From contig DATDWP010000028.1 of the NCBI GenBank assembly GCA_035289625.1, positions 9,840 through 73,839 of the forward strand: a stretch of 64,000 nt of DNA. Reading direction: 5' to 3'. The position numbers and the translations under genes were made by a program. Positions 20,488 through 35,624 of this stretch are shown here, one piece after another. Source of the stretch: an archaeon (GTDB lineage Archaea; Iainarchaeota; Iainarchaeia; Iainarchaeales; Iainarchaeaceae). The notes beneath the pieces are model-generated. The model saw only the letters and a program-made list of their open reading frames with translations, made no database searches and was not told where the DNA came from. Position 1 is the stretch's first letter; the number at the start of each line of letters is the position of its first letter.

Positions 20488-20640
20488 ATGAAAACATGCA
20501 TTACAACAAACAAGGTCGTAATAAATGACTTTATAGAATTCCACTGCCCGAGCTGCAATGAGCGAATAGTACGAAGCCTTGAAGCGCGCGCAAAGAGCTT
20601 ATCATATAAGTGCCCAACATGCAGCTTTAGCGGCCCATGA
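20488..20640 (+). CDS. Zn-ribbon RNA-binding protein (COG2888-like)
   Basis: HCPSCNERIV...YKCPTCSFSGP; C-terminal CPxCGFxGP-like signature; conserved position upstream of aEF-1beta. Confidence 0.6.
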   Translation: MKTCITTNKVVINDFIEFHCPSCNERIVRSLEARAKSLSYKCPTCSFSGP

Positions 20641-21558: not shown

Positions 21559-23610
21559 ATGATCAAAAGCATTTATTTGGAAAACTGGAAAACCCATTTG
21601 AAGAGCCAATTTGAATTTGCCAAAGGCACGAATGTAATAGTTGGAATATCCGGGGCTGGAAAAACATCAATAACCGATGCAATATCCTACGCGCTATACG
21701 GAACATTCCCCTCACTTGCAGCCCGCAAAGTGAGCCTTGAAGAAACCATAATGTCAAAACCACTAAAACAACAAACAACAACAATAAGGCTAGAATTTGA
21801 TTATTCCAATAAGAGCTACCAAATTGAGAGAACTTCTAGAAGAAACGGCATGAGCGAAGCCACCTTGCGGGAAGGCACAAAAATAATTGCAGGCCCTAAA
21901 ACAACAGATGTCACAAAAAAAGTAACTGAAATACTTGAAGTGAATTATGATCTTTTCAGCAGGGCAATATATTCTGAGCAAAACCAAATAGATTTTTTCC
22001 TAAAACTCTCAGCTTCGCAAAGAAAAGAAAAAATCGATGAACTCTTAGGGCTTGATAGGTATGAGCGCGTGCGAACAAATGCAGTGACGCTTCTAAACCG
22101 CATGAAAAAAATCAACGATGACAAAAAGGCATTTTTGCAAGAGCAGCGCAAGAAAATAAACCCTGTGCAAATTAGTGAATATGAATGGAAATTGAAGCAG
22201 AAAAGAGAGGAAATAGCCCAAAAAGAAAAAGAAATGGAAAATGTACAAAAACTCTTTTTACAAAAAGAACTTGCCGCAAAAGAAATTGAAAAAAAAGAAA
22301 AAGAACACAAATCAATACGCGAACTTGAAATATCAAAAAAATCGAAACTTGAATCACTGCAAGCCCAAATAGAGAATGCGCAAAAAAAATCCCAAGGGCA
22401 TGATCTAACAAGCACGCAAGAGGTTTTACTTAAAATGGCAACGGAGCTTGAAAAACTACATCTTGCAAAAAAATCCCTCGAAGACCTTGCAAAGGCAGCA
22501 CAAAGAGAGGAAAATGGAATAGGTGAAAAACTCGCAGTGCAAAAAAACCTGCTTTTATCAAATGCAAAAAGAATGAAAGAAGCAAAAGACCTTGAAGGAA
22601 AATGCCCAATATGCTGCAGGCCGCTTAGCGAACATGACAAAAAAAAACTGGATGAGGAAATAAAAGGGGAAGAGGAGAGCATTTCCAGGCAAAGTATAAT
22701 ACTGCAAAAAGAACTAGAGCAACAGAGCAAAAAATCCAAAGAGATTATTTCCCAAATAGAAAAGAACACGCGGCAATGCGAAGAGCTACGGGAAAAAATA
22801 CAAACTCTAACACGGCTTTTAGAAATAGCACAGGAGATAAAAGATAAAAAATTCCAAAAAGAAAAACTCGAAGAGGAACTTGCAAAAATACACTCCTCAT
22901 TACTTGAAATGAAATTTGATGAAAAAGATGCAATAAAATCTAGGGAGCAATACTACGAGGCGCGAGAGAAGCACTCCAAAATAAAAATTGAAATAAACGC
23001 AACAAAAGAACTTATAGCAGAACTTGAAACTGCAGAGCGAAGAATAAAGGAAATGCAAAGCCAAATTGAAGAATTGGAAGCGCAAACAAAAATATCTGAA
23101 AAGAATATGGAAAAACTCTCAATGTTCACCTCCGCCCTAAAATCAACACAAGCAGAACTTCGCAATGTAATGATAGATACAATAAACCAGGCAATGGAGC
23201 AGCTGTGGCCCAAAATATACCCATACCAAGATATTCTATGCGTAAAACTTACAGTGGATGAGGGGAGCTATGAAATAATGGTAAGGCAGGTTAGCGGAGA
23301 GTGGATTAGAGTTGAAGGCATACTCTCGGGCGGGGAGAGGAGCAGCGCCGCGCTTACACTGCGAATTGCAATTTCACTAGTGCTCACGCAAAACCTTGGA
23401 TGGATAATACTAGATGAGCCCACACACAACCTTGATGTGAATTCGGTAAAGGAACTATCTGAAATGATGAGAAATCATTTGCCACAATTTATTGAACAAA
23501 TATTTATCATAACCCACGAAAAAGAACTAGAGTATGCAGCATCGGGAAAACTCTACACGCTGGAGCGCGAAAAAGAAAGAGACGGAGTTACGAAAATATC
23601 AATTGAGTAG
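21559..23610 (+). CDS. rad50: DNA double-strand break repair ATPase Rad50
   Basis: N-terminal MIKSIYLENWKTH...GISGAGKTSITDAISYALYG Walker A; central coiled coil with zinc hook GKCPICCRPL; C-terminal LSGGERS signature and ILDEPTHNLD Walker B. Confidence 0.85.
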   Translation: MIKSIYLENWKTHLKSQFEFAKGTNVIVGISGAGKTSITDAISYALYGTFPSLAARKVSLEETIMSKPLKQQTTTIRLEFDYSNKSYQIERTSRRNGMSEATLREGTKIIAGPKTTDVTKKVTEILEVNYDLFSRAIYSEQNQIDFFLKLSASQRKEKIDELLGLDRYERVRTNAVTLLNRMKKINDDKKAFLQEQRKKINPVQISEYEWKLKQKREEIAQKEKEMENVQKLFLQKELAAKEIEKKEKEHKSIRELEISKKSKLESLQAQIENAQKKSQGHDLTSTQEVLLKMATELEKLHLAKKSLEDLAKAAQREENGIGEKLAVQKNLLLSNAKRMKEAKDLEGKCPICCRPLSEHDKKKLDEEIKGEEESISRQSIILQKELEQQSKKSKEIISQIEKNTRQCEELREKIQTLTRLLEIAQEIKDKKFQKEKLEEELAKIHSSLLEMKFDEKDAIKSREQYYEAREKHSKIKIEINATKELIAELETAERRIKEMQSQIEELEAQTKISEKNMEKLSMFTSALKSTQAELRNVMIDTINQAMEQLWPKIYPYQDILCVKLTVDEGSYEIMVRQVSGEWIRVEGILSGGERSSAALTLRIAISLVLTQNLGWIILDEPTHNLDVNSVKELSEMMRNHLPQFIEQIFIITHEKELEYAASGKLYTLEREKERDGVTKISIE

Positions 23611-24085: not shown

Positions 24086-25591
24086 TTAGAACCGAAGGGC
24101 CCGAACCCCTATAAGACGCCTATCCACACTATACAAATCGGAAAAGCTCTTTAGCACCCCAATTAGCGATTGCGAATCAACCAAGATGCGCGAAAAATTA
24201 GGCGAAGAACTAGGAGTATTTGCGCCCACTAGTGCAACCTGCTCAAAATCCCTCAAAACCCCGCCATTTATTGACTGTATTGCAATTGCAACACTTTTCT
24301 GGAAAAATCCGCAATCCTTACTTGTGAGAATTTGGGGCAGGGAAGTTAGAATTTGCGAGATATTTTTATTTAGAATTTTACTATAAAAAAATGAAGGGCT
24401 TGATTCGATTTGCCGCTGGTAAAATAGGCCATGCGAAGCAACGCTACTGGCCTGCTCAAGCTCTAGCCCAGATTTTGCCAAAAGAAGAATGGATTTTAGC
24501 GATTGCACCTGCTCTGAAAGAGCGCTTTCATTTTGCAAACAAGCCCACATTGGTTTTGAATCTGAAAGTATTTGGACAGAATTTTGCTTTGCCAGCTGCA
24601 GAGCGTCACATAGCAAAATGAACTCCTCACTATTTCTACCAAATGGCCCTATAGGGTAAAAATCATACGAATACTCCGATCTTCTTGCAATCCGCTTTTC
24701 CTTTAGCGCCTTTGAATTGTGAAAATCTTCCGCCCAAATCGGGGAAAGAGAATTGAAGTAAAAACCATCGCAGAGAAATTTCACCTTCACAAGGCTTGAT
24801 GGCAAAACATTCTTATGCGAAATTGATAATGGAGCGCAGCATTTACAATTTAGGGTTTCAAACCCAATATTATTGAAAGGCATTGAGCACATCAGGCAAA
24901 CAATCATTGAAAGATCAATTTCAGATTTTCCCCGGTGCGCCCTTGGAATTTGTGTCTTGCCTTTTTTTTCCAAAACAAGAGGGATTTTTGAAGCAAAAAA
25001 AGAATTTTCAGCAAAAACTTCACCCAGCTCTTTTGGCGCATCCCTTCCGACAAGCGGTATTTTGAGAAGACGCGAGCGCACAATTTTTTCCACCATCTCT
25101 TTTGCAATATTTTTATCTACTACCAAAAGATCCTGCACTGTTTTTTTCAAAGATTCTGAGATAAAATCAAGTTCTACATCAGGAAATTCGCACGAATTCA
25201 CCAGTTCTGGTTCGCCTGAGGAGAAAGAAAAAGAATCAAAATACCCCCACCCTTTTTCGATCAAAAATTGCCGCTCTGGTTCTATCAGATTTACATGCAC
25301 CCCAAAATAAGTGTCAAGAAGATTTGCCACTACTTTTAGATCTGAAAAAGTTGCAGCAAAAATCACCGCAACATCCCCATCAATATCTGCTTTCACACGC
25401 TGCAAATCGTGCTTTGATAAAACTTCCCTAAAAAGCTGCGCTGAAATTCCCCTTAGAGGAAAGTACATTTTCGGGAAGAAAGAGTAGCGTTTTGTGATAC
25501 GCTCTTTTTTGGAAGAAAACTCTGCTAAAACCTGCCTTTTTTGCGCAGAATAGCTAACTCTACAAAGAAACATGTGTGTGCTTGGGAGCAT
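24086..25591 (-). CDS. hypothetical 501-aa protein with Cys cluster
   Basis: No recognisable family; CLMCSMPFNNIGFETLNCKCC cluster; same strand as rpoK-rps17e. Confidence 0.4.
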   Translation of the reverse strand: MLPSTHMFLCRVSYSAQKRQVLAEFSSKKERITKRYSFFPKMYFPLRGISAQLFREVLSKHDLQRVKADIDGDVAVIFAATFSDLKVVANLLDTYFGVHVNLIEPERQFLIEKGWGYFDSFSFSSGEPELVNSCEFPDVELDFISESLKKTVQDLLVVDKNIAKEMVEKIVRSRLLKIPLVGRDAPKELGEVFAENSFFASKIPLVLEKKGKTQIPRAHRGKSEIDLSMIVCLMCSMPFNNIGFETLNCKCCAPLSISHKNVLPSSLVKVKFLCDGFYFNSLSPIWAEDFHNSKALKEKRIARRSEYSYDFYPIGPFGRNSEEFILLCDALQLAKQNSVQILSDSKPMWACLQNESALSEQVQSLKSILLLAKSGLELEQASSVASHGLFYQRQIESSPSFFYSKILNKNISQILTSLPQILTSKDCGFFQKSVAIAIQSINGGVLRDFEQVALVGANTPSSSPNFSRILVDSQSLIGVLKSFSDLYSVDRRLIGVRALRF

Positions 25592-25704
25592 AGCACACTT
25601 GCGGAACCTGCTTTAAAAAGCGTTTGGAGAGGGACCTCATTGCCGGTGCCAAACAAAAATTTTCCCCATTAACAACAAAATGTTGCCCCAATGTTAAGGA
25701 TGGC

Positions 25705-26349: not shown

Positions 26350-29300
26350 TTAGAGCAAATCCTCAATATCTTTTGAAGCAGCATCCTTTGTATCCTCAAA
26401 ATCAACTGCCGCCTTTTCAAGTGTTGTCTCATGGCGCGAATCTTGCGAGAGCTTTTTTCTCACCTTGAAAAAAACAGGAAAGTTCACAGCTTCCCCGACA
26501 ATTAAAGCTTCGCCTGTTCGCATTGTAGTTATCATATCAAGGCTACGCTTATCTAGCCCTTCACTAGTTTTTCCAATATGGTCAAGATCGTAAGGGTTTG
26601 TCACGCGCAATATTATATGAGTGTTGCACTGGGAAAGGGCTGTTGTTGAAAGATTTATCGGGCGCTGGGAAATTAGACAAATTGTTGCCCCGAACTTTCT
26701 TCCCTCGCGTGCAATTGTTTCCAAAATCCCCCTGCTAATTGCACCCTCTTTTGAAACCTTTTCCGGGATGAATTGGTGCGCCTCTTCAAGAACCATTGTA
26801 AAGGGCGCGATTTTTTTGTTCTTTCTTTCATAAAATAATTTTGACGAAAAATACGCAACAATTATCTGCTTTTTTTTCATATCAACAATATCGCTAAGAT
26901 CAACAATTGTAAGCTGCCCAGGCCTTATCAGATCATTAATGCTCGGGCTGTCTGTTTTTGAAAATAACCCAAGCTGCTCAAGTGACATAATCCAACCAAC
27001 AAGTGATTGCTTTGTTGCTTCCTTCATCTCTGTGTCTTTGAAAATTTCCGATTTTACCGCGCTAAAATCAAATGGCCCGAGCCCTTCTTTCATTTCCCTT
27101 TTCAATTTTTCCAAAACGCGCGCAAGATCCCTTTTTTGCGGGGATGTGAGCCCGGGAATAATCGAAGCCAGCATTCCAATTGAGAGCTTTGGGACCCCTA
27201 TCTGAATTTCCGGGGCCCTAATATATCTTGTTTTTGAAGAAAAATCAGCATAGCGAGAATCTGTCGGGGGCTCAGCAAATGAACGGTACTCTCCGTGCGC
27301 GTCCATTACAATTACTGCAATTCTACCATCCTCTTTTTTTCGCGCAAGGAGCTCTTCAAATAAAACAGAAGTTAGATAGCTGTTGTGTACAATAATTTCA
27401 TTTGCTACAAAGTTTGAATTTTCAACTGAAATATCATAAACATATTTATAGGCGGGTTTTATTTTCTGTATGTCTTCTACTGTGTCAAAAAATACATTCA
27501 TTTCACAAAATTTTTTAACTACACTTATCCGTGCTCTTGCATTGATCAAGTTTTGGCTGGATTCTTGTGCAATTTTTTTAAGTGAATCTGCAAAAGACAG
27601 CACCAATGAATTGTCAGCTTGGCCTCTTCCTTTTGAATGGCTATAGAGAAATTGTTTGTAACACCCATTAGTTTTGCACAATCCCTCGGTTGAATAACCC
27701 AAAGACTCGCAAAAAGCCTTAATTTCAGAAAGAGCCTTGTTTCTATCATCAGAACACACCCTTTCAAGGCCATTTAAGTTCCCACCCTTTATCTTTAACA
27801 CATTTTTTGCAAGAATGAAAGTCGTATTTTTAGGGGATGTTATTTCCCGAACAACCCTTCTTGCAGTGGTGCTTGACACCCCACTACCGGCAGCAATTTG
27901 ATTAAAATCAAGACCCTCAGAATATGCAGTTTTTAGTATTTCAAGAGCGTTCTGCTCAGATATAGGAATCAATGTTTCAAATACTGAATTTATTTTTACC
28001 AATGTATTTTCAATCTCTTCTGCCCGTTTTTCAAAAAGCCCAATAAGCACTCTCAAACTTTCCCTCGAAGGATTATCCTTACGGTAAAGGTAATTATTTA
28101 TGCCTGAAGACTCTTTTTGCGGCTGTGGCATTCTTAGCAATGAAAGTATTTCCGCAAGATGCGTATGTGTATGCGGTACAACATCAATATTCGTGTTGGG
28201 TTTTGTATGAACCCATTTATCCAATGCGGATTTTTTGTAATCTATCAGCAGGTTTAAATCGTGCAATTTGCGTATTTCCCCCGAGCCACTCACTAAAACT
28301 CTCTGGTATTCTTCCCCATCCACTATTTTGACACTGCGAAGCGTTATGACCCCTAACTTCGTAAATATTTCCTCTACCCCATCAGCTAGCCTTTTGCCGG
28401 CAACTGTTACATCTAACTCTGATTTATCCGGGTTTACATACCCATCACAATCGATAAAAGCCGAGATAAAATTTTTTAGGACATTTTTTTCACTTTGGAG
28501 AATTTCATCCGGAATGAATTTTGTCCAACTTGATTTGGTAAAACCATAGCCATTTAGGCATCGTGCGAGGACAATAGAATCTATTAATAATTCCCCTTTG
28601 GATTTGGCCTTTTTCACCCTGAGAGCAAATTTTTCTTCACAAATATCGGTAAAGTCTTTTTGTATTAGCTGATTTTCATTCGAGAAATTCATCCTCGATT
28701 TAAGCGTATTATGGCCTTCGGCAATAAGGTAGGCCATAAGTCTTGCAAAGCGTTCATCAACAGAATATAAAAGTTTGGTCGAAATCTTCGACTGTTTTTG
28801 GATAGCATATCCATCTTCCATCTTAACCCCCTTGAATTTTGCAGCTGAAGCAGTGAAATCTATTTGGGACTTTTTCCCAACCCAATCTACTCTTGGCAAA
28901 AATACATAATCATTTACCGAAATATTTTGTGCTTCTTTCCATTCAATTGCCCCGTTAAATACAGGCACCAAATGTTCTGGCGTCACCTCAATTTCTTTTC
29001 CAGTCCTTGTTTTTATCCGAATGGCATTTTCCGGAGCCTTTCTCCTATAATACCCAAGTATTTTCCCCGGAACTACCTTATTGACAGACTCTGAAAGCGC
29101 ATACGCCCTCAAATCAAAATCCTCTTCCCAAAACTCTACTCCATTTTCAACTTTCTTATTTTTTTCCAACACAGAATCTACAATCCCACCAATGGTTTTC
29201 TGTGCGCTATTCTCAAGCAATATTTTCGTGTCAGGTTTTACACATTTACCGGCACCAGACATCGCCAAAATCGCAAGGTGCTTTTGGAAAAGGCGTGAAA

Positions 29301-29799
29301 GATTTAATTTTACCGAAACATCATGATGCTCAATTTCGCCTAGCATTAGCCCTTTTTGCAAATCAAGGCCTAGGAATTTTTCCAAAGTTGCCCTTACTGC
29401 TACGCGCACTTTTGTTCCGGGGGAAGGCGGAAAAGTTGCGCGCCTCATTCTGCCTTCATTATATACACCCAAAGGACGGGTTTTTGCAACCAAATATTCC
29501 CACTCATGAGCAGGAAATTGCTCGAATAATTTTTTTCCGGAAGATTCAAATTCTTTAACACTTTCAAATCTTTCAAAATACCTATTTGTTTTGAGAACAT
29601 CGCCGACAAGGCAAACCATTGTCCCTTCACTATAATCAAGCTCAACAAATTGGCCGCGATGAATTGAACCAGAATATACAACAAAATCCAGTGAACTTGG
29701 GGATGGGCCTTCCATACTGCTAACAACAGTTCCGATTTCACCCTCTTTTAATTGCGGCAGATTTTTTAGCTGCTCATCTGAAATCTGCGTTTCATTCAC
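26350..29799 (-). CDS. herA: HerA-like helicase/ATPase with an intein in the P-loop
   Basis: Exteins (185 + 343 aa) rejoin as ...LAILAMSGAGK|SYLTSVLFEELL (Walker A GAGKS); C-extein has a Walker B/HerA-like core; intein begins with Cys after GAGK and ends VHN|S. Confidence 0.8.
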   Translation of the reverse strand: MNETQISDEQLKNLPQLKEGEIGTVVSSMEGPSPSSLDFVVYSGSIHRGQFVELDYSEGTMVCLVGDVLKTNRYFERFESVKEFESSGKKLFEQFPAHEWEYLVAKTRPLGVYNEGRMRRATFPPSPGTKVRVAVRATLEKFLGLDLQKGLMLGEIEHHDVSVKLNLSRLFQKHLAILAMSGAGKCVKPDTKILLENSAQKTIGGIVDSVLEKNKKVENGVEFWEEDFDLRAYALSESVNKVVPGKILGYYRRKAPENAIRIKTRTGKEIEVTPEHLVPVFNGAIEWKEAQNISVNDYVFLPRVDWVGKKSQIDFTASAAKFKGVKMEDGYAIQKQSKISTKLLYSVDERFARLMAYLIAEGHNTLKSRMNFSNENQLIQKDFTDICEEKFALRVKKAKSKGELLIDSIVLARCLNGYGFTKSSWTKFIPDEILQSEKNVLKNFISAFIDCDGYVNPDKSELDVTVAGKRLADGVEEIFTKLGVITLRSVKIVDGEEYQRVLVSGSGEIRKLHDLNLLIDYKKSALDKWVHTKPNTNIDVVPHTHTHLAEILSLLRMPQPQKESSGINNYLYRKDNPSRESLRVLIGLFEKRAEEIENTLVKINSVFETLIPISEQNALEILKTAYSEGLDFNQIAAGSGVSSTTARRVVREITSPKNTTFILAKNVLKIKGGNLNGLERVCSDDRNKALSEIKAFCESLGYSTEGLCKTNGCYKQFLYSHSKGRGQADNSLVLSFADSLKKIAQESSQNLINARARISVVKKFCEMNVFFDTVEDIQKIKPAYKYVYDISVENSNFVANEIIVHNSYLTSVLFEELLARKKEDGRIAVIVMDAHGEYRSFAEPPTDSRYADFSSKTRYIRAPEIQIGVPKLSIGMLASIIPGLTSPQKRDLARVLEKLKREMKEGLGPFDFSAVKSEIFKDTEMKEATKQSLVGWIMSLEQLGLFSKTDSPSINDLIRPGQLTIVDLSDIVDMKKKQIIVAYFSSKLFYERKNKKIAPFTMVLEEAHQFIPEKVSKEGAISRGILETIAREGRKFGATICLISQRPINLSTTALSQCNTHIILRVTNPYDLDHIGKTSEGLDKRSLDMITTMRTGEALIVGEAVNFPVFFKVRKKLSQDSRHETTLEKAAVDFEDTKDAASKDIEDLL
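27382..29244 (-). mobile_element. intein (621 aa) with LAGLIDADG homing-endonuclease domain inside herA
   Basis: Block A Cys1 (GAGK|CVKPDTKILL); LAGLIDADG-like motifs LMAYLIAEGHN and ISAFIDCDGYV; C-terminal block EIIVHN followed by Ser+1. Confidence 0.75.
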
Positions 29800-29912
29800 T
29801 GCAAATCACCAACCGCAGGCCCTTCATAACCACAATCAGGGCACCTATACTGCCTACCCCCCAAATCCAGAGCTTCCTTCATCTTCTTTGACCTACATCG
29901 CGGGCATATCAT
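29796..29912 (-). CDS. 38-aa zinc-ribbon protein (not in the ORF track)
   Basis: Hand translation MICPRCRSKKMKEALDLGGRQYRCPDCGYEGPAVGDLQ*; two CxxC pairs; its TGA stop overlaps the herA GTG start as GTGA. Confidence 0.45.
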   Translation of the reverse strand: MICPRCRSKKMKEALDLGGRQYRCPDCGYEGPAVGDLQ

Positions 29913-29914
29913 AA

Positions 29915-30385
29915 TTATCTCCTCCTTATAGCAATCCTGGATAAAATTTTCCTTTTTTTCTTTTTAGGTTTTTTAACTCTGTGGTTTATTTCTCTCAAAG
30001 CACGCTTTTTTTTCAAATATTCTCCAATAAAACCATCAGTTGTCACAGAACCCGCATAGCAATGAACATAAATTTTTTTACCTGCAGGAAGAGAGCGAAT
30101 TATCTCAAAAAATTTTAAAAGATCATTTTCTTTAACTGGCGACCCGAGACGCCCAAAACCTACGGCGCCACCAAAATCATAAACTCGCATCCCGTATTTT
30201 GGTGCTACAGCATGATCGACTATCCCTGTAGTACGTCTTCCAGCCATATATCCTATCAAAGAAACTATTGCTACGACACCTTTCTCTTTTAGAAATGCAT
30301 ATTTTGCATTTGTATTTGCAACTCCGCCGGCAAGGACAAAACGATCTATTTCTTTAAACAGGTTTGGCTCCTCCAATTGCACCAT
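29915..30385 (-). CDS. dual-specificity-phosphatase-like protein with atypical P-loop
   Basis: VHCYAGSVTT resembles HCxAGxxR(S/T) but the catalytic Arg is replaced by Thr; Lys-rich tail. Confidence 0.4.
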   Translation of the reverse strand: MVQLEEPNLFKEIDRFVLAGGVANTNAKYAFLKEKGVVAIVSLIGYMAGRRTTGIVDHAVAPKYGMRVYDFGGAVGFGRLGSPVKENDLLKFFEIIRSLPAGKKIYVHCYAGSVTTDGFIGEYLKKKRALREINHRVKKPKKKKRKILSRIAIRRR

Positions 30386-30387
30386 CT

Positions 30388-30801
30388 TCACACAACCCTT
30401 ACTTTTGCCTCTTTCACTCTTTTCCACTCCTTATCGCTCGTGACTGCCGTCGCATCGTTTTCGATAGCTGTTTGTAGTATTATGGCATCAGCCATTGAGA
30501 GATTGAGGTCTGTATGCCTGCTTTTCAAAAATGCCGCTTTCTTTGCTATTTTGAGGGTCGGCTCAATAAAACTCCCAATTTTCTCGAAAAATACCACTGA
30601 TTTTACGGCTGACCTTATATTCTTCCTCTTCAAGGTTGTTATAAGCTCAAAAGCCGAGAGCGTGCTTGCAAGGCAATTAATTTCCTTTTTGCTGCCCTTT
30701 TCAAGTAGGTAACCAACCTTTTTGCTGCCCTTTTCTGCGATAGCGAATTTTACCAGTGCGGAGCTGTCAAAAACCAAATCTTTTTTATCTTTTTTTCTCA
30801 T
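30388..30801 (-). CDS. vapC: PIN-domain toxin (VapC-like)
   Basis: LVFDSSALV N-terminal PIN motif; acidic residues spaced as in PIN; 137 aa; overlaps the upstream small gene. Confidence 0.7.
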   Translation of the reverse strand: MRKKDKKDLVFDSSALVKFAIAEKGSKKVGYLLEKGSKKEINCLASTLSAFELITTLKRKNIRSAVKSVVFFEKIGSFIEPTLKIAKKAAFLKSRHTDLNLSMADAIILQTAIENDATAVTSDKEWKRVKEAKVRVV

Positions 30802-31018
30802 CTTCTTGCCTCATTTTCTTGATATCTGAAGATTTTATGCCGGCCCCTTTTGCGATGCCGTAAAGCGCCGCTACAGGATCTTTTGGAACCGGTATCAAAA
30901 GTATCCCTTCAGGAACTTTTTCCACGACAAATTCCGTGCCAGAAAACCAATCCTCTTCTTCCCTAATTTGCGCCGGGAGTACCAACTGCCCCTTTGAAGA
31001 AAGTATTGTTCTATACAT
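30785..31018 (-). CDS. vapB: AbrB/SpoVT-type antitoxin (VapB-like)
   Basis: 77 aa; LSSKGQLVLPAQIRE swapped-hairpin motif; overlaps vapC start. Confidence 0.7.
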   Translation of the reverse strand: MYRTILSSKGQLVLPAQIREEEDWFSGTEFVVEKVPEGILLIPVPKDPVAALYGIAKGAGIKSSDIKKMRQEDEKKR

Positions 31019-31066
31019 TTTACATCACCATACACAGTTCTTACTTTTACCTATAAAAATCTTACC

Positions 31067-32158
31067 TCAAAACGGCCTATTATCCCTTCGCATCCTCATT
31101 TTCACAGACGCCCCCAATTTATCCATAATTTTATTGTACACAATATCGATTTCGTTGTTATTTAGCTTTGCATGAAAATCGGCTTCAATTAGAACCGAAG
31201 GGTATGCGTACTCGCGATGCAAAGAGCTAAGGGCCGTTGCAACACTTGCAATCTCATCTGCTTTTTCAAAAAGCTCTGATTTATTATGGCAAATAAATTC
31301 GACACGAAGCGGCCTATCAAGAGCCGAGGGCTTTACATACAGCCCATAAATGCCCTCTGCCCATTGTGGATTAAAATCAACTAGCACGGGATGCTGTCGG
31401 ATATTTTTTGTATAAGTAAAAGCGCAACTGCGCTCGCCAACTTGCAGGAAATATTCCAAAAGAGAAGAATCAAAAATCCCATCAAGCTCTTCTTTTCTAA
31501 CACTGCCCATCTTTTCTACTACATTGTCTTGCAAAATCGACCGGAAGCGCGAACCTCTACTATCCTCAACAGTTGCAATAAGGGTAGTGTTGTGCTTTTG
31601 CGCCAAAGCATAGAGAGATTCAAACTCACTTATAATCCCGTGATAATTATCGGTTAGTTCGGATTCTTTTCTTGGCTTGTCCTGGTATTGTGGAACAATG
31701 CTCCCGTCAATAAAAAGATATTTCGGAGAGTACTCTTCAATTATTTTTTTTGAAACGCCAACTTCCTCTTTTAACCTCATAAGGCTCTTGCTCTGCTCGG
31801 CTTCATCATCCTCAAGTGATGCTCCTGCAAGATGGGGCTGCGGGAAATTAAAATAACCCGGATGGTATTTTGCGAGGACCACTTTCCCATCAGAATATTC
31901 AAACAAAACCCCCATTGCTCTAATCAGCACAAGATCAATTGTAGCAAGCCGCTTTGCAACAAAACCCGAATCAACCCCTGCAACAAGCCCATTTGGGATC
32001 CACTTTGAAATTGGAAATACAAGCTTTTTTTCAGCAAGTTCTGAAGAGGAAAAATCTAAATATTTTAGCGGCAAGAGGCGCTGCACCACAAATTTTCTGC
32101 GATTCTCCCCATTTGCTATGACATCAACAGTGTGGTCAATTATTGAAGAGATATTCAT
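31067..32158 (-). CDS. nurA: NurA-like nuclease
   Basis: N-terminal LVAGVDSGF motif resembling the NurA catalytic Asp motif; 363 aa; herA on the same strand. Confidence 0.6.
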   Translation of the reverse strand: MNISSIIDHTVDVIANGENRRKFVVQRLLPLKYLDFSSSELAEKKLVFPISKWIPNGLVAGVDSGFVAKRLATIDLVLIRAMGVLFEYSDGKVVLAKYHPGYFNFPQPHLAGASLEDDEAEQSKSLMRLKEEVGVSKKIIEEYSPKYLFIDGSIVPQYQDKPRKESELTDNYHGIISEFESLYALAQKHNTTLIATVEDSRGSRFRSILQDNVVEKMGSVRKEELDGIFDSSLLEYFLQVGERSCAFTYTKNIRQHPVLVDFNPQWAEGIYGLYVKPSALDRPLRVEFICHNKSELFEKADEIASVATALSSLHREYAYPSVLIEADFHAKLNNNEIDIVYNKIMDKLGASVKMRMRRDNRPF

Positions 32159-32254
32159 AATAACATCAATTCTTCGGAGTTTTTAAAACACCTATAGACC
32201 TCATTGCCGGTGCGGGCTCCAAAAACCATTAAATCAACCCAGTACCCAAAATAT

Positions 32255-34511: not shown

Positions 34512-34673
34512 ATGCGCCTACAAAAACAAATGTCAAGACGAGTAGGGGATGTGGAATATGCAAAATGGGTCGTAGTAATACCCCCAGAAATAGTTGAAAA
34601 AAGCAAATTAAAAGAAGGCCAAGAATTAGAAGCACACGTAGCCGAAGGAAAAATAACTCTAAAACCAAAATAA
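34512..34673 (+). CDS. 53-aa AbrB/SpoVT-like small regulator (not in the ORF track)
   Basis: Hand translation MRLQKQMSRRVGDVEYAKWVVVIPPEIVEKSKLKEGQELEAHVAEGKITLKPK; swapped-hairpin-like V.IP.EI...L.EG.E; palindromes sit directly upstream. Confidence 0.45.
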   Translation: MRLQKQMSRRVGDVEYAKWVVVIPPEIVEKSKLKEGQELEAHVAEGKITLKPK

Positions 34674-35624
34674 CTATTTTAGAGATTTTTTCAAACTATC
34701 AAAACTTTTCTTAAAATTAGCCACAATCTTTTTTGTTTTTGGAAACGATAAGTTCCCGTCATTTTCTAATTTTACTAGATATTTTTTAAATTCATTTTCC
34801 TCTTCAACACTTCTATTTGTTTTACTAACCAATTTTAAAAAAGCGTCATTGGTTTTTGGCACATATAAGATTTGCACCCCTTCACCTACATAATTGTCAA
34901 TTTTTGATTCCTCAATATAATTTATTATAAAACAACCTAATTTTGCCATTTCTTCCATGGTAATTTCATCACTCCACATCGCCTTTAGAAAAGTCTGTGC
35001 ATATGGCGAACCACTACCTATTGCCAAAAAAGTTTTTCTTTTACTATCTAAACAATCAGCAATCTCTAATTTATGTAACTCAGCCTCGCGCCCTGAACGA
35101 AAAGCAATTAAAAGTTGCAATCCATTTGGATATTTTTCCATTATATCTTTGTATTGATTTTTCATTTGAAATAAAATCCCTTCACAATCTTCAACAAACT
35201 GATTTGCATAAGCATATGGACTAATTATCGCATCCAACTCTTCTTGAGTTATTTTTGGATTCTGCTCCTGCATTTGTTTTTTTATTTGTTTTTTCCTTTC
35301 TTCTAAGTTAATGAAAACACGAGCTAAAAATTTATCAAATAATTCAGAAATTCCAGCCCCGCTGAACCCTACGCCCAAAGCATCTACCAAGTAAATTTTA
35401 GGATGTGAAGCAATATCTACACCCTCAACTACTTTTTTGTCGGAAATTATTACTACTCCGTCTTTACAATTTGCCCCTATTACTAATGTCATTTTTTCGC
35501 CATTTTGAGGTTTGTTTTTTAACATTTTCGGCACTTTCTGATAAGTAAGCAAAAACGAAACTATAAATTGTCTTTGATTGCTTATCGGTGTTGACACACC
35601 AAAAAAGTACCTAATTTTAGGCAC
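34674..35624 (-). CDS. HslV/proteasome-beta-like Ntn-hydrolase with an internal insertion and C-terminal extension
   Basis: MTLVIGANCKDGVVIISDKKV...LGVGFSGAGIS and AIGSGSPYAQ match HslV/20S beta motifs (Thr1, Lys33-like, GSG); true start probably internal (MTLVIG near 35492). Confidence 0.55.
   Translation of the reverse strand: MPKIRYFFGVSTPISNQRQFIVSFLLTYQKVPKMLKNKPQNGEKMTLVIGANCKDGVVIISDKKVVEGVDIASHPKIYLVDALGVGFSGAGISELFDKFLARVFINLEERKKQIKKQMQEQNPKITQEELDAIISPYAYANQFVEDCEGILFQMKNQYKDIMEKYPNGLQLLIAFRSGREAELHKLEIADCLDSKRKTFLAIGSGSPYAQTFLKAMWSDEITMEEMAKLGCFIINYIEESKIDNYVGEGVQILYVPKTNDAFLKLVSKTNRSVEEENEFKKYLVKLENDGNLSFPKTKKIVANFKKSFDSLKKSLK

Follow-up and report, generated by a model that had tools for sequence, protein, structure and literature searches.

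The locus described here raises the question of whether a herA gene separated from nurA by a toxin–antitoxin pair, a phosphatase-like gene and a zinc-ribbon micro-ORF belongs to a non-canonical anti-phage system, as an earlier note on this DNA had suggested, or to the DNA-repair machinery of its host, an uncultured member of Iainarchaeota (Diapherotrites, DPANN). HerA–NurA is the archaeal long-range DNA-end-resection motor and, to our knowledge, has so far been investigated solely as a complex of two proteins. Within the 64-kb window (the whole stretch of DNA analyzed), six ORFs were found on the minus strand in the order nurA, vapB, vapC, DSP-like gene, 38-aa zinc-ribbon ORF (ZnR) and herA, and both this order and the coordinates given earlier proved to be right. 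The GC content is even across the locus, and no matches inside it were obtained by Rfam and tRNA scans.

The first gene, nurA (31067–32158, minus strand), encodes a 363-aa protein that matches PF09376 well above the gathering score (41.9 bits vs. a cutoff of 21; E-value, 1.1e-10) over profile positions 2–253 of 254, and shares 61–69% identity with the NurA proteins of relatives. Among 12 sequences, residues D63, E119, D151 and H314, candidates for the catalytic acidic and His residues, do not vary; no solved NurA structure was reached with either the NurA sequence or the NurA profile. The scan of viral contigs with NurA revealed no close relatives.

The herA ORF (26350–29799, minus strand) encodes a precursor of 1149 aa, a length that is due to a 621-aa intein (27382–29244) splitting the Walker A motif at GAGK|C…HN|S. 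The N-extein (29245–29799; aa 1–185) ends in AMSGAGK, whereas the C-extein (26350–27381; aa 807–1149 and the stop codon) contains the Walker B motif VLEEAH and matches PF01935 (DUF87/HerA; E-value, 2e-25). In silico removal of the intein results in a HerA of 528 aa with an intact Walker A motif (AMSGAGKS, conforming to GxxGxGK[ST]), so that the ATPase domain and both Walker motifs place it in the PF01935 HerA family. The spliced protein is 58–78% identical to the intein-free HerA (~512 aa) of Diapherotrites. It scores far below the cutoffs of the NCBIfam double-strand break repair equivalogs NF040819 and NF040937 (147.9 and 146.2 bits vs. 970 and 800, respectively) and, the lineage being diverged, is thus to be regarded as a family-level member only. 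As for the start of herA, GTG is the sole in-frame start codon that precedes EIGTV, a motif conserved universally.

The presence of the intein in herA was overlooked by the earlier note. It matches the Pfam Intein_splicing (E-value, 2e-20) and LAGLIDADG_3 (E-value, 1.1e-6) families, and its landmarks are C186, TPEH, LIAEGHN, FIDCDG and HN806|S807, i.e., an N-terminal Cys, a TxxH block, two LAGLIDADG motifs with acidic residues, a C-terminal HN and a +1 Ser. The blocks C1, TPEH, AEGHN, DCDG and HN|S are kept in eight intact orthologous HerA inteins and, together with the intact ORFs, suggest that the element may be active in both splicing and homing. P-loop inteins are known in ATPases such as VMA1, RecA/RadA, DnaB and RFC. 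Like these, the HerA intein combines a Hint splicing domain and a LAGLIDADG endonuclease within Walker A, has the same C1, TxxH, terminal HN and +1 Ser, and is distributed patchily among close relatives. Unlike them, it resides in HerA, and in this lineage HerA inteins occupy three separate sites, one in Walker A, one following Walker B and one in the sensor motif. The literature searched contained no mention of a HerA intein or a DUF87 intein.

According to the literature, herA and nurA usually share an operon with mre11 and rad50 (PMC8708640). The comparison of ~22 related Iainarchaeota loci demonstrated that the premise of normally adjacent herA and nurA fails for this lineage, since the two genes are adjacent in none of them: in every Iainarchaeota relative nurA comes first and is separated from herA by 1–5 extra genes. 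The split noticed earlier is therefore real and no random interruption, as the same gene types lie between the two genes in many relatives. The note had named unrelated insertions with separate promoters as part of what would refute its reading; the opposite was observed, the ORFs between nurA and herA following each other closely (≤2 nt apart) or overlapping. The core-gene neighborhood (rpoK, rps17e, EF-1beta, rad50) is conserved in about 20 genomes, including the downstream synteny of a PolB-like gene, rpoK, rps17e and convergent rad50. The latter gene (21559–23610, plus strand) is flanked by EF-1beta and rps17e, and its end lies 2.7 kb from herA, in agreement with the distance of ~3 kb reported before. 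The content of the nurA–herA slot is variable. Both vapBC and the DSP gene are confined to about one-third to one-half of the relatives and therefore are dispensable for HerA–NurA function, and ZnR2 is patchy as well. In other loci the slot is filled by a GNAT gene (L014), by genes for a HAD hydrolase, a DUF3850 protein and an unknown ORF (L045), or by an opposite-strand gene (L046).

The reported lack of mre11 was borne out. No Mre11-like ORF was detected in the 64-kb window by a GNH[DE] motif scan and Pfam scans of the large ORFs, and the motif scan of all fetched loci was negative as well; in particular, rad50 has no mre11 beside it in any of the relatives' loci, about 20 in number, in which it is included. 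The outgroup loci offered no Mre11 to use as a query, and rad50 is an orphan in a Micrarchaeota locus too. The sole metallophosphoesterase-like ORF among the loci encodes a 268-aa protein in L027. U501, considered as a substitute for Mre11, was rejected because its fold is that of PolB and phosphoesterase motifs are lacking. Neither four contiguous mre11-rad50-herA-nurA genes nor mre11 beside rad50 were observed, and the literature searched contained nothing relevant on NurA/HerA in DPANN or on Mre11 in Diapherotrites/DPANN. The locus resembles the herA-mre11-rad50-nurA operons of Sulfolobus and Pyrococcus in that one co-directional operon codes for an ATPase of the FtsK-HerA superfamily and for the nuclease NurA, with rad50 nearby. 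It differs from them in that nurA precedes herA with other genes in between, rad50 is convergent, mre11 was found neither in the window nor in the rad50 loci of relatives, and HerA contains an intein.

Among the genes of the slot, the last one before herA is ZnR (29796–29912, minus strand), which encodes a C4 zinc ribbon (CxxC...CxxC) of 38 aa. As was noticed previously, its TGA stop overlaps the herA GTG start (GTGA). The ORF is very short and was passed over by gene callers in several relatives (e.g., L005 and L007), as would be expected of a chance ORF. This reading is hardly tenable, and is effectively refuted by conservation: nine residues (C3, P4, C6, G19, Q21, C24, C27, G28 and G31), including all four Cys, are invariant across 14 orthologues sharing 29–74% identity, the dN/dS ratio is 0.12–0.35, a strong AGGAGG Shine–Dalgarno sequence is located 7 nt upstream, and the protein has profile similarity to known zinc fingers. 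A zinc-ribbon mini-protein is encoded between nurA and herA in 20 out of 22 related loci (in 17 of them of the 38-aa type), the distant relatives L045 and L046 having none whatsoever. In a metagenome scan centered on ZnR, which used a subgroup of four sequences and is biased toward close relatives, full-length homologues were found exclusively between nurA and herA, while 5 of the 11 matches represented an unrelated aS21-like double zinc finger. In 18 out of 19 loci the stop codon of the upstream gene lies −28 to +27 nt from the herA start, and this coupling is kept whatever the preceding gene.

Profile–profile comparison revealed similarity of ZnR to the HVO_2753-like/aS21 zinc fingers (PF07754; hhalign probability, 97.5%), in which ZnR aligns to the C-terminal zinc pocket, including the Y[KR]CPxCG[FY]xGP knuckle. 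ZnR, however, has one ribbon in 38 aa instead of two pockets in 50–60 aa, and its genomic context is different; a true member of the HVO_2753-like/aS21 family is encoded elsewhere in the same window (20488–20640). Since PF07754 is absent from the best 25 Pfam matches listed for ZnR, even at E ≤ 1, the protein is related to this family yet not a member of it. No relevant report on NurA/HerA with a zinc ribbon was found in the literature searched. The translational coupling of ZnR to herA across a whole DPANN phylum suggests an unrecognized small subunit or regulator; ZnR is likely to be the true partner of HerA–NurA, acting most likely as a small subunit or a cofactor.

The presence of a toxin–antitoxin pair between nurA and herA was confirmed by domain matches. 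The vapB gene (30785–31018, minus strand; 77 aa) codes for an antitoxin of the AbrB/SpoVT- (AbrB/MazE-) type (PF04014; E-value, 3.8e-6; TIGR01439 AbrB; E-value, 1.3e-8), and is overlapped by 17 nt by vapC (30388–30801, minus strand; 137 aa), which encodes a PIN-domain toxin (PF01850; E-value, 2e-12). Residues D12, E52, D105 and D123 of VapC are invariant in six orthologues, so the pair has the features of a type II VapBC module: a small AbrB-type antitoxin gene overlapping a PIN gene with all four acidic residues. It also resembles such modules in having a promoter-overlapping repeat element upstream. The pair directly follows nurA in seven genomes (the window and six others) scattered over the NurA/HerA tree. 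A VapB-only remnant is present in L040, and in L016 vapBC has been lost, leaving a promoter relic. The distances of NurA and VapC are correlated (Mantel r = 0.73, p = 0.011), while the correlation between NurA and VapB is not significant; the vapBC genomes underlying the tree as well as the Mantel test number only six. VapBC is an ancient resident toxin–antitoxin pair. Unlike usual VapBC modules, it occupies one fixed place within an operon for DNA repair, with which it has diverged in parallel in the seven genomes, and ZnR and herA further downstream would likewise be served by its promoter element. The literature searched yielded no relevant report on NurA/HerA with VapC.

Two putative regulatory regions were recognized on the minus strand. 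Upstream of nurA, the element CGCACCGGCA (32205–32214) is located 47 nt before the ATG and is found at equal spacing in 15 out of 16 related loci. The PolB-like gene has this motif in front of it as well, and GCACCGGCA-N15-22-TATA may mark a putative regulon. The presumed TATA-like box TTTTAAAAA (32180–32188), read from the sequence, lies 21 nt before the nurA ATG, implying a leaderless or near-leaderless transcript, and a TTTAAAA box occurs at the same spacing before nurA in all relatives. The second region, GGTAAGA-TTTTTATA-GG-TAAAAGTAAGA (31039–31066), is situated inside the 48-nt spacer between nurA and vapB; it is unique in the window, with no chance matches expected. This TATA-plus-direct-repeat (GTAAGA-TATA-GTAAGA) element is present in all six vapBC-bearing genomes and persists in L016, which lacks vapBC. 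Its structure is compatible with an operator.

The gene downstream of vapC (29915–30385, minus strand; 156 aa) starts, according to the gene callers, at ATG 30385, and not at GTG 30427. Its earlier description as phosphatase-like holds at the level of the fold, the family profile matching DSP structures in PDB (1xri; E-value, 5.4e-10; DUSP23; E-value, 1e-9), and fails at the level of catalysis, since the P-loop of the window copy (HCYAGSVTT) has Thr in place of the Arg of CX5R and so departs from the active-site signature HCX5R[ST]. DSP-fold proteins with a basic C-terminal tail are encoded in 10 genomes. DSP-type Pfam families are matched by 7 out of 12 family members, and the window protein itself gives a weak match to Tc-R-P. 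A word-based search with this protein returned only itself, a HMMER search against 1.84 billion representatives just three weak relatives, and its AlphaFold model from the single sequence is of low confidence (pLDDT 48). Like the atypical DSPs PFA-DSP/At1g05000, DUSP23 and PTPMT1 and the Pfam DSP-PTPase families Tc-R-P and PTP-SAK of conflict systems, with which the family profile aligns over ~110 residues, the family has an N-terminal P.nF..vD..v.rS..P motif and an HCxxG P-loop. Unlike these, it keeps the CX5R Arg in only ~4 of 15 members (the copies of L006 and L044 are canonical in this respect), all of its members have a C-terminal basic tail ending roughly in RRR[LP][KR], and it is seen almost exclusively between nurA and herA. 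The family evolves very fast and is operon-specific. For the window protein, a role as an accessory factor that binds phosphate or DNA (as a pseudophosphatase) is more likely than the activity of a conventional phosphatase.

The suggestion of an anti-phage HerA/NurA system, in which NurA, the PIN nuclease and the DSP protein would serve as effectors or regulators on a HerA hexamer, as in Sir2-HerA and DUF4297-HerA, remained unsupported, and we consider it very unlikely. HerA does match antiphage HerA models (NCBIfam E-value, 2.3e-38; PADLOC HerA E-value, 3.8e-52), the variable slot contains conflict-type genes (the toxin–antitoxin pair, and a DSP-PTPase with kinship to the polymorphic-toxin and "Swiss army knife" families), no Mre11 completes the classical resection pathway, and, as in those systems, nuclease genes accompany the gene for a HerA-family ATPase. 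However, the repair-type NCBIfam models score slightly higher (E-values, 3.6e-43 and 1.1e-42), PADLOC recognized HerA by generic models alone, with no hits for NurA, VapB, VapC or DSP and only weak Cas12 zinc-ribbon noise for ZnR, and no cognate effector (Sir2, DUF4297 or similar) lies beside HerA, its partner being canonical NurA. Moreover, the locus is chromosomal and syntenic rather than a variable island, with uniform GC, a conserved promoter and the same core-gene neighborhood in about 20 genomes; the variable genes are absent from many relatives, in which nurA, ZnR and herA persist, and no relatives reside on viral contigs. The locus is probably a vertically inherited housekeeping HerA–NurA end-resection operon in a lineage-specific expanded form.

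How far the additional genes participate in this operon may be judged from the same data. That all of them, ZnR included, are unrelated hitch-hikers (a selfish toxin–antitoxin pair and fast-evolving small ORFs) tolerated in a permissive slot seems unlikely. Such a view would account for the patchiness of vapBC, DSP and ZnR2, the unrelated genes in the slots of L014, L045 and L046, the promoter-like element of vapBC's own, and the rapid evolution of the DSP family with its mostly lost Arg. It is at odds with the retention of ZnR under purifying selection in 17 of 22 loci and nowhere else, with coupling to herA regardless of the preceding gene, and with the constant position of vapBC co-diverging with NurA; in addition, the slot repeatedly harbors phosphatases from DSP and HAD, superfamilies that are unrelated to each other, and this recurrence is suggestive of a functional link. 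We tentatively offer, as a possibility that is itself not very probable, that the HerA–NurA of Iainarchaeota is an expanded machine, of which ZnR (often with ZnR2) and the DSP-derived pseudophosphatases, with their docking-type basic tail, would be real components. In such a machine, a domesticated VapBC on the internal promoter would serve as a stress switch that controls how much ZnR and HerA is supplied, and thereby resection, and through the shared upstream motif the operon would be regulated jointly with a PolB-like protein that is compact and probably inactive.

For the housekeeping operon, in which gene identities, intein anatomy, conservation, linkage and purifying selection are demonstrated, the following course of events, with its physical interactions, regulation and biochemical roles, may be proposed. 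Transcription would start at the conserved promoter upstream of nurA and, probably, for a second time at the TATA-plus-direct-repeat element just upstream of vapB, and the six ORFs would be translated as a tightly coupled string up to the overlapping ZnR stop and herA GTG. The 1149-aa HerA precursor would have to excise its P-loop intein to become the active 528-aa ATPase, which would then, presumably, assemble with a NurA dimer as the hexamer typical of HerA. As the only additional gene that is nearly universal, ZnR most likely provides a small subunit or cofactor of this complex, and the DSP-fold protein may be an accessory factor binding phosphate or DNA. The internal promoter is probably under autoregulation by the AbrB-type antitoxin, which may in this way modulate ZnR and herA expression as well.

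The operon provides a clear case of a toxin–antitoxin pair that has kept its place in a core repair operon despite deep divergence. It also illustrates the decay of a Cys-phosphatase family, from which probable pseudophosphatases have arisen. HerA in this lineage is an intein hotspot, with the insertion sites lying in catalytic motifs. The identity of HerA–NurA is unchanged by these findings; what is widened is its known architecture, in reduced-genome archaea that seemingly do without an adjacent Mre11.

On the minus strand of the window, positions 26350–32158 contain six ORFs in the order proposed by the earlier note, with identities assigned by Pfam and NCBIfam: nurA (31067–32158; PF09376, 41.9 bits; cutoff, 21), the AbrB/MazE-type antitoxin gene vapB (30785–31018), the PIN toxin gene vapC (30388–30801; E-value, 2 × 10−12), a gene weakly matching DSP-PTPases (29915–30385), ZnR, a 38-aa CxxC...CxxC zinc-ribbon ORF (29796–29912), and herA, an ORF of 1149 aa (26350–29799; PF01935). 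Independent gene callers place the start of the DSP-like gene at the ATG at 30385, giving a protein of 156 aa. The nurA–vapB spacer is 48 nt, vapB and vapC overlap by 17 nt, and gaps of 2 nt separate vapC from the DSP-like gene and the latter from ZnR. The proposed overlap of the ZnR stop with the herA GTG start (GTGA) is real, because this GTG is the sole in-frame start upstream of EIGTV, a motif common to all homologues. As also noted earlier, rad50 lies about 3 kb away on the opposite strand (21559–23610, +; convergent, 2.7 kb from herA), and no Mre11-like ORF was found within the 64 kb. Exact copies of the locus are present on groundwater metagenome contigs.

For comparison, HerA-centred loci were fetched from a genome collection and from individual homologues, a ZnR-centred metagenome scan was added, and all of the loci were annotated by tblastn and ORF scans. 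Both nurA and herA were found in about 22 distinct Iainarchaeota-type loci and were adjacent in none of them; they are adjacent in the outgroup loci L022 (Micrarchaeota) and L028 (Thorarchaeota). Within the nurA–herA interval, ZnR of 37–38 aa occurs in 17 of the 22 loci, a second, longer zinc ribbon (ZnR2, 60–80 aa) in 12, and at least one of the two in 20. A VapB–VapC pair is located in seven intervals, always directly 3' of nurA (L040 retains a remnant with VapB only), and one or two DSP-like proteins are encoded in ten. In more distant relatives, the same slot harbors an 81-aa zinc ribbon and a GNAT acetyltransferase (L014, 905–1616), a HAD-family hydrolase, DUF3850 and an unknown 209-aa ORF (L045, 3427–4996), or a 289-aa gene on the opposite strand (L046, 4014–4883). 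The conserved downstream order is herA, a variable transporter, a ~500-aa protein, rpoK, rps17e, convergent rad50 and EF-1beta, with no mre11 in this neighborhood of the compared loci.

ZnR is a genuine gene specifically tied to the nurA–herA operon. All 14 orthologues (29–74% identity) keep C3, P4, C6, G19, Q21, C24, C27, G28 and G31, and dN/dS is 0.12–0.35 for non-saturated pairs. The full-length homologues from the metagenome scan were all located between nurA and herA, whereas its partial matches belong to another protein, a double zinc finger of the HVO_2753-like/aS21 type. ZnR shows profile-level kinship to the latter (hhalign, 97.5%) but is not assigned to its family (PF07754) by Pfam. 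The window also contains a 50-aa gene of this type adjoining EF-1beta (20488–20640, +; PF07754, 35.2 bits; cutoff, 33.2), the C-terminal knuckle of which (YKCPTCSFSGP) resembles that of ZnR (YRCPDCGYEGP). In the window, ZnR is preceded by an AGGAGG Shine-Dalgarno sequence supplied by the three terminal RRR codons of the DSP-like gene (AGG AGG AGA; 29913–29935, −); thus, part of the basic C-terminal tail found in all DSP-like members, roughly RRR[LP][KR], is doubly used. In 18 of 19 loci, the gene before herA, regardless of its identity, has its stop within −28 to +27 nt of the herA start codon.

In homologue searches, the DSP-like protein of the window alone had almost no sequence relatives. 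When 12 operon-linked homologues were combined into a profile, it matched solved atypical DSPs (At1g05000, E-value, 5.4 × 10−10, followed by DUSP23, DUSP10 and PTPMT1), and seven of the 12 members matched Pfam DSP families, which establishes membership at the fold level. Only the Cys and Gly of HCxxG are invariant in the alignment. Since the CX5R arginine is kept in about 4 of 15 members and the P-loop of the window copy reads HCYAGSVTT, this copy is unlikely to be a conventional phosphatase, and a binding or adaptor role is favored. A phosphate-related function at the slot, e.g., DNA-end processing, is speculative and stays in play because of the HAD-family hydrolase in L045; the DSP and HAD superfamilies of phosphatases, found at the same position, are unrelated to each other.

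The four acidic residues of the VapC PIN domain are kept in all six orthologues. Genomes with vapBC are dispersed over the NurA and HerA neighbor-joining tree, basal branch included, and pairwise NurA and VapC distances are correlated (Mantel r = 0.73, p = 0.011, n = 6 genomes); the correlation for VapB was not significant in the same six genomes. The tree scatter and the NurA–VapC correlation agree with vapBC having been acquired ancestrally and then lost repeatedly; they do not agree with recent independent insertions. The nurA–vapB spacer is conserved in all six vapBC genomes, reading GGTAAGA-TTTTTATA-GG-TAAAAGTAAGA and then a GGTGAT Shine-Dalgarno sequence. This element occurs once in the window, is retained in L016, where vapBC was lost, and may represent an internal promoter and operator for the AbrB-type antitoxin.

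The earlier note named herA correctly and overlooked an intein inside the ORF (residues 186–806; 27382–29244, −; Intein_splicing, E-value, 2 × 10−20; LAGLIDADG_3, E-value, 1.1 × 10−6), with junctions GAGK|CVKPD... and ...IIVHN|SYLTS. Its in silico removal restores an intact Walker A (AMSGAGKS) and leaves a HerA of 528 aa that is 58–78% identical over the full length to ~512-aa intein-free Candidatus Diapherotrites/Iainarchaeum proteins. Orthologous Walker A inteins occur in eight loci, all with open frames keeping C1, T/SxxH, AEGHN, DCDG and HN|S; this P-loop intein is a selfish element. Further HerA intein sites were observed after Walker B (EEAHQF|C...GN|CPE; L016, 8091–10127, and L030, 8001–10046) and in the sensor motif (LSQ|C...HN|CNTH; L015, 8496–11015), HerA of L030 carrying two inteins at once. 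No paper describing HerA inteins was found in the literature searched.

The conserved ~500-aa protein (24086–25591, −) encoded 3' of herA in nearly all relatives has no match in Pfam, NCBIfam or PDB sequences, and nearly all of its 41 homologues are unnamed or labelled Diapherotrites or unclassified archaea. Its confident AlphaFold model (pLDDT 88.6; 33-sequence alignment) has family-B DNA polymerases as all of the best 50 Foldseek matches in the PDB (E-value, ~3 × 10−6; query-normalised TM-score, 0.41–0.47; 8–9% identity). Since Asn replaces the catalytic Asp in the motif-A-like NVLPSS, the modelled protein may be a compact, inactive PolB derivative. The shared promoter element [C/G]GCACCGGCA[A/C] precedes nurA and this PolB-like gene in almost every relative (window 32205–32214 and 25641–25650, −; same positions in L005–L044), 15–22 nt 5' of a TTTAAA box and 45–49 nt 5' of the ATG. 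Both window copies share the identical 17-mer GCACCGGCAATGAGGTC, and the element may serve as a transcription-factor site or mark a regulon. It was also observed 5' of a few TA-like genes in relatives (PIN gene in L021, AbrB gene in L040). Rad50 is short (683 aa) and has a zinc hook; its gene is preceded by EF-1beta, converges on rps17e/rpoK, and has no mre11 next to it in the window or in the ~20 relatives' loci that include rad50. An orphan rad50 is also found in Micrarchaeota locus L026. Unrelated to the operon are an orphan 53-aa AbrB/MazE-type ORF (34512–34673, +) and the abutting gene for a 316-aa proteasome-subunit-like protein with a long N-terminal extension (34674–35624, −).

The suggestion that the locus is a non-canonical HerA-based anti-phage system appears improbable. 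PADLOC returned generic HerA models only, with no match to the partner genes of the operon. Antiphage HerA models of NCBIfam do match (E-values, 2.3 × 10−38 and 2.3 × 10−35), but less well than the repair-type ones (3.6 × 10−43 and 1.1 × 10−42), all of these scores being far below the equivalog cutoffs. Moreover, GC is even across the whole locus, the neighborhood consists of core genes, and the viral-contig scan found no close relatives of NurA. The locus is most likely a housekeeping HerA–NurA operon with a lineage-specific expanded architecture, in which ZnR is the conserved extra component, with a putative functional role, and the VapBC and DSP-like genes are old yet dispensable residents, the roles of which are likewise predicted.
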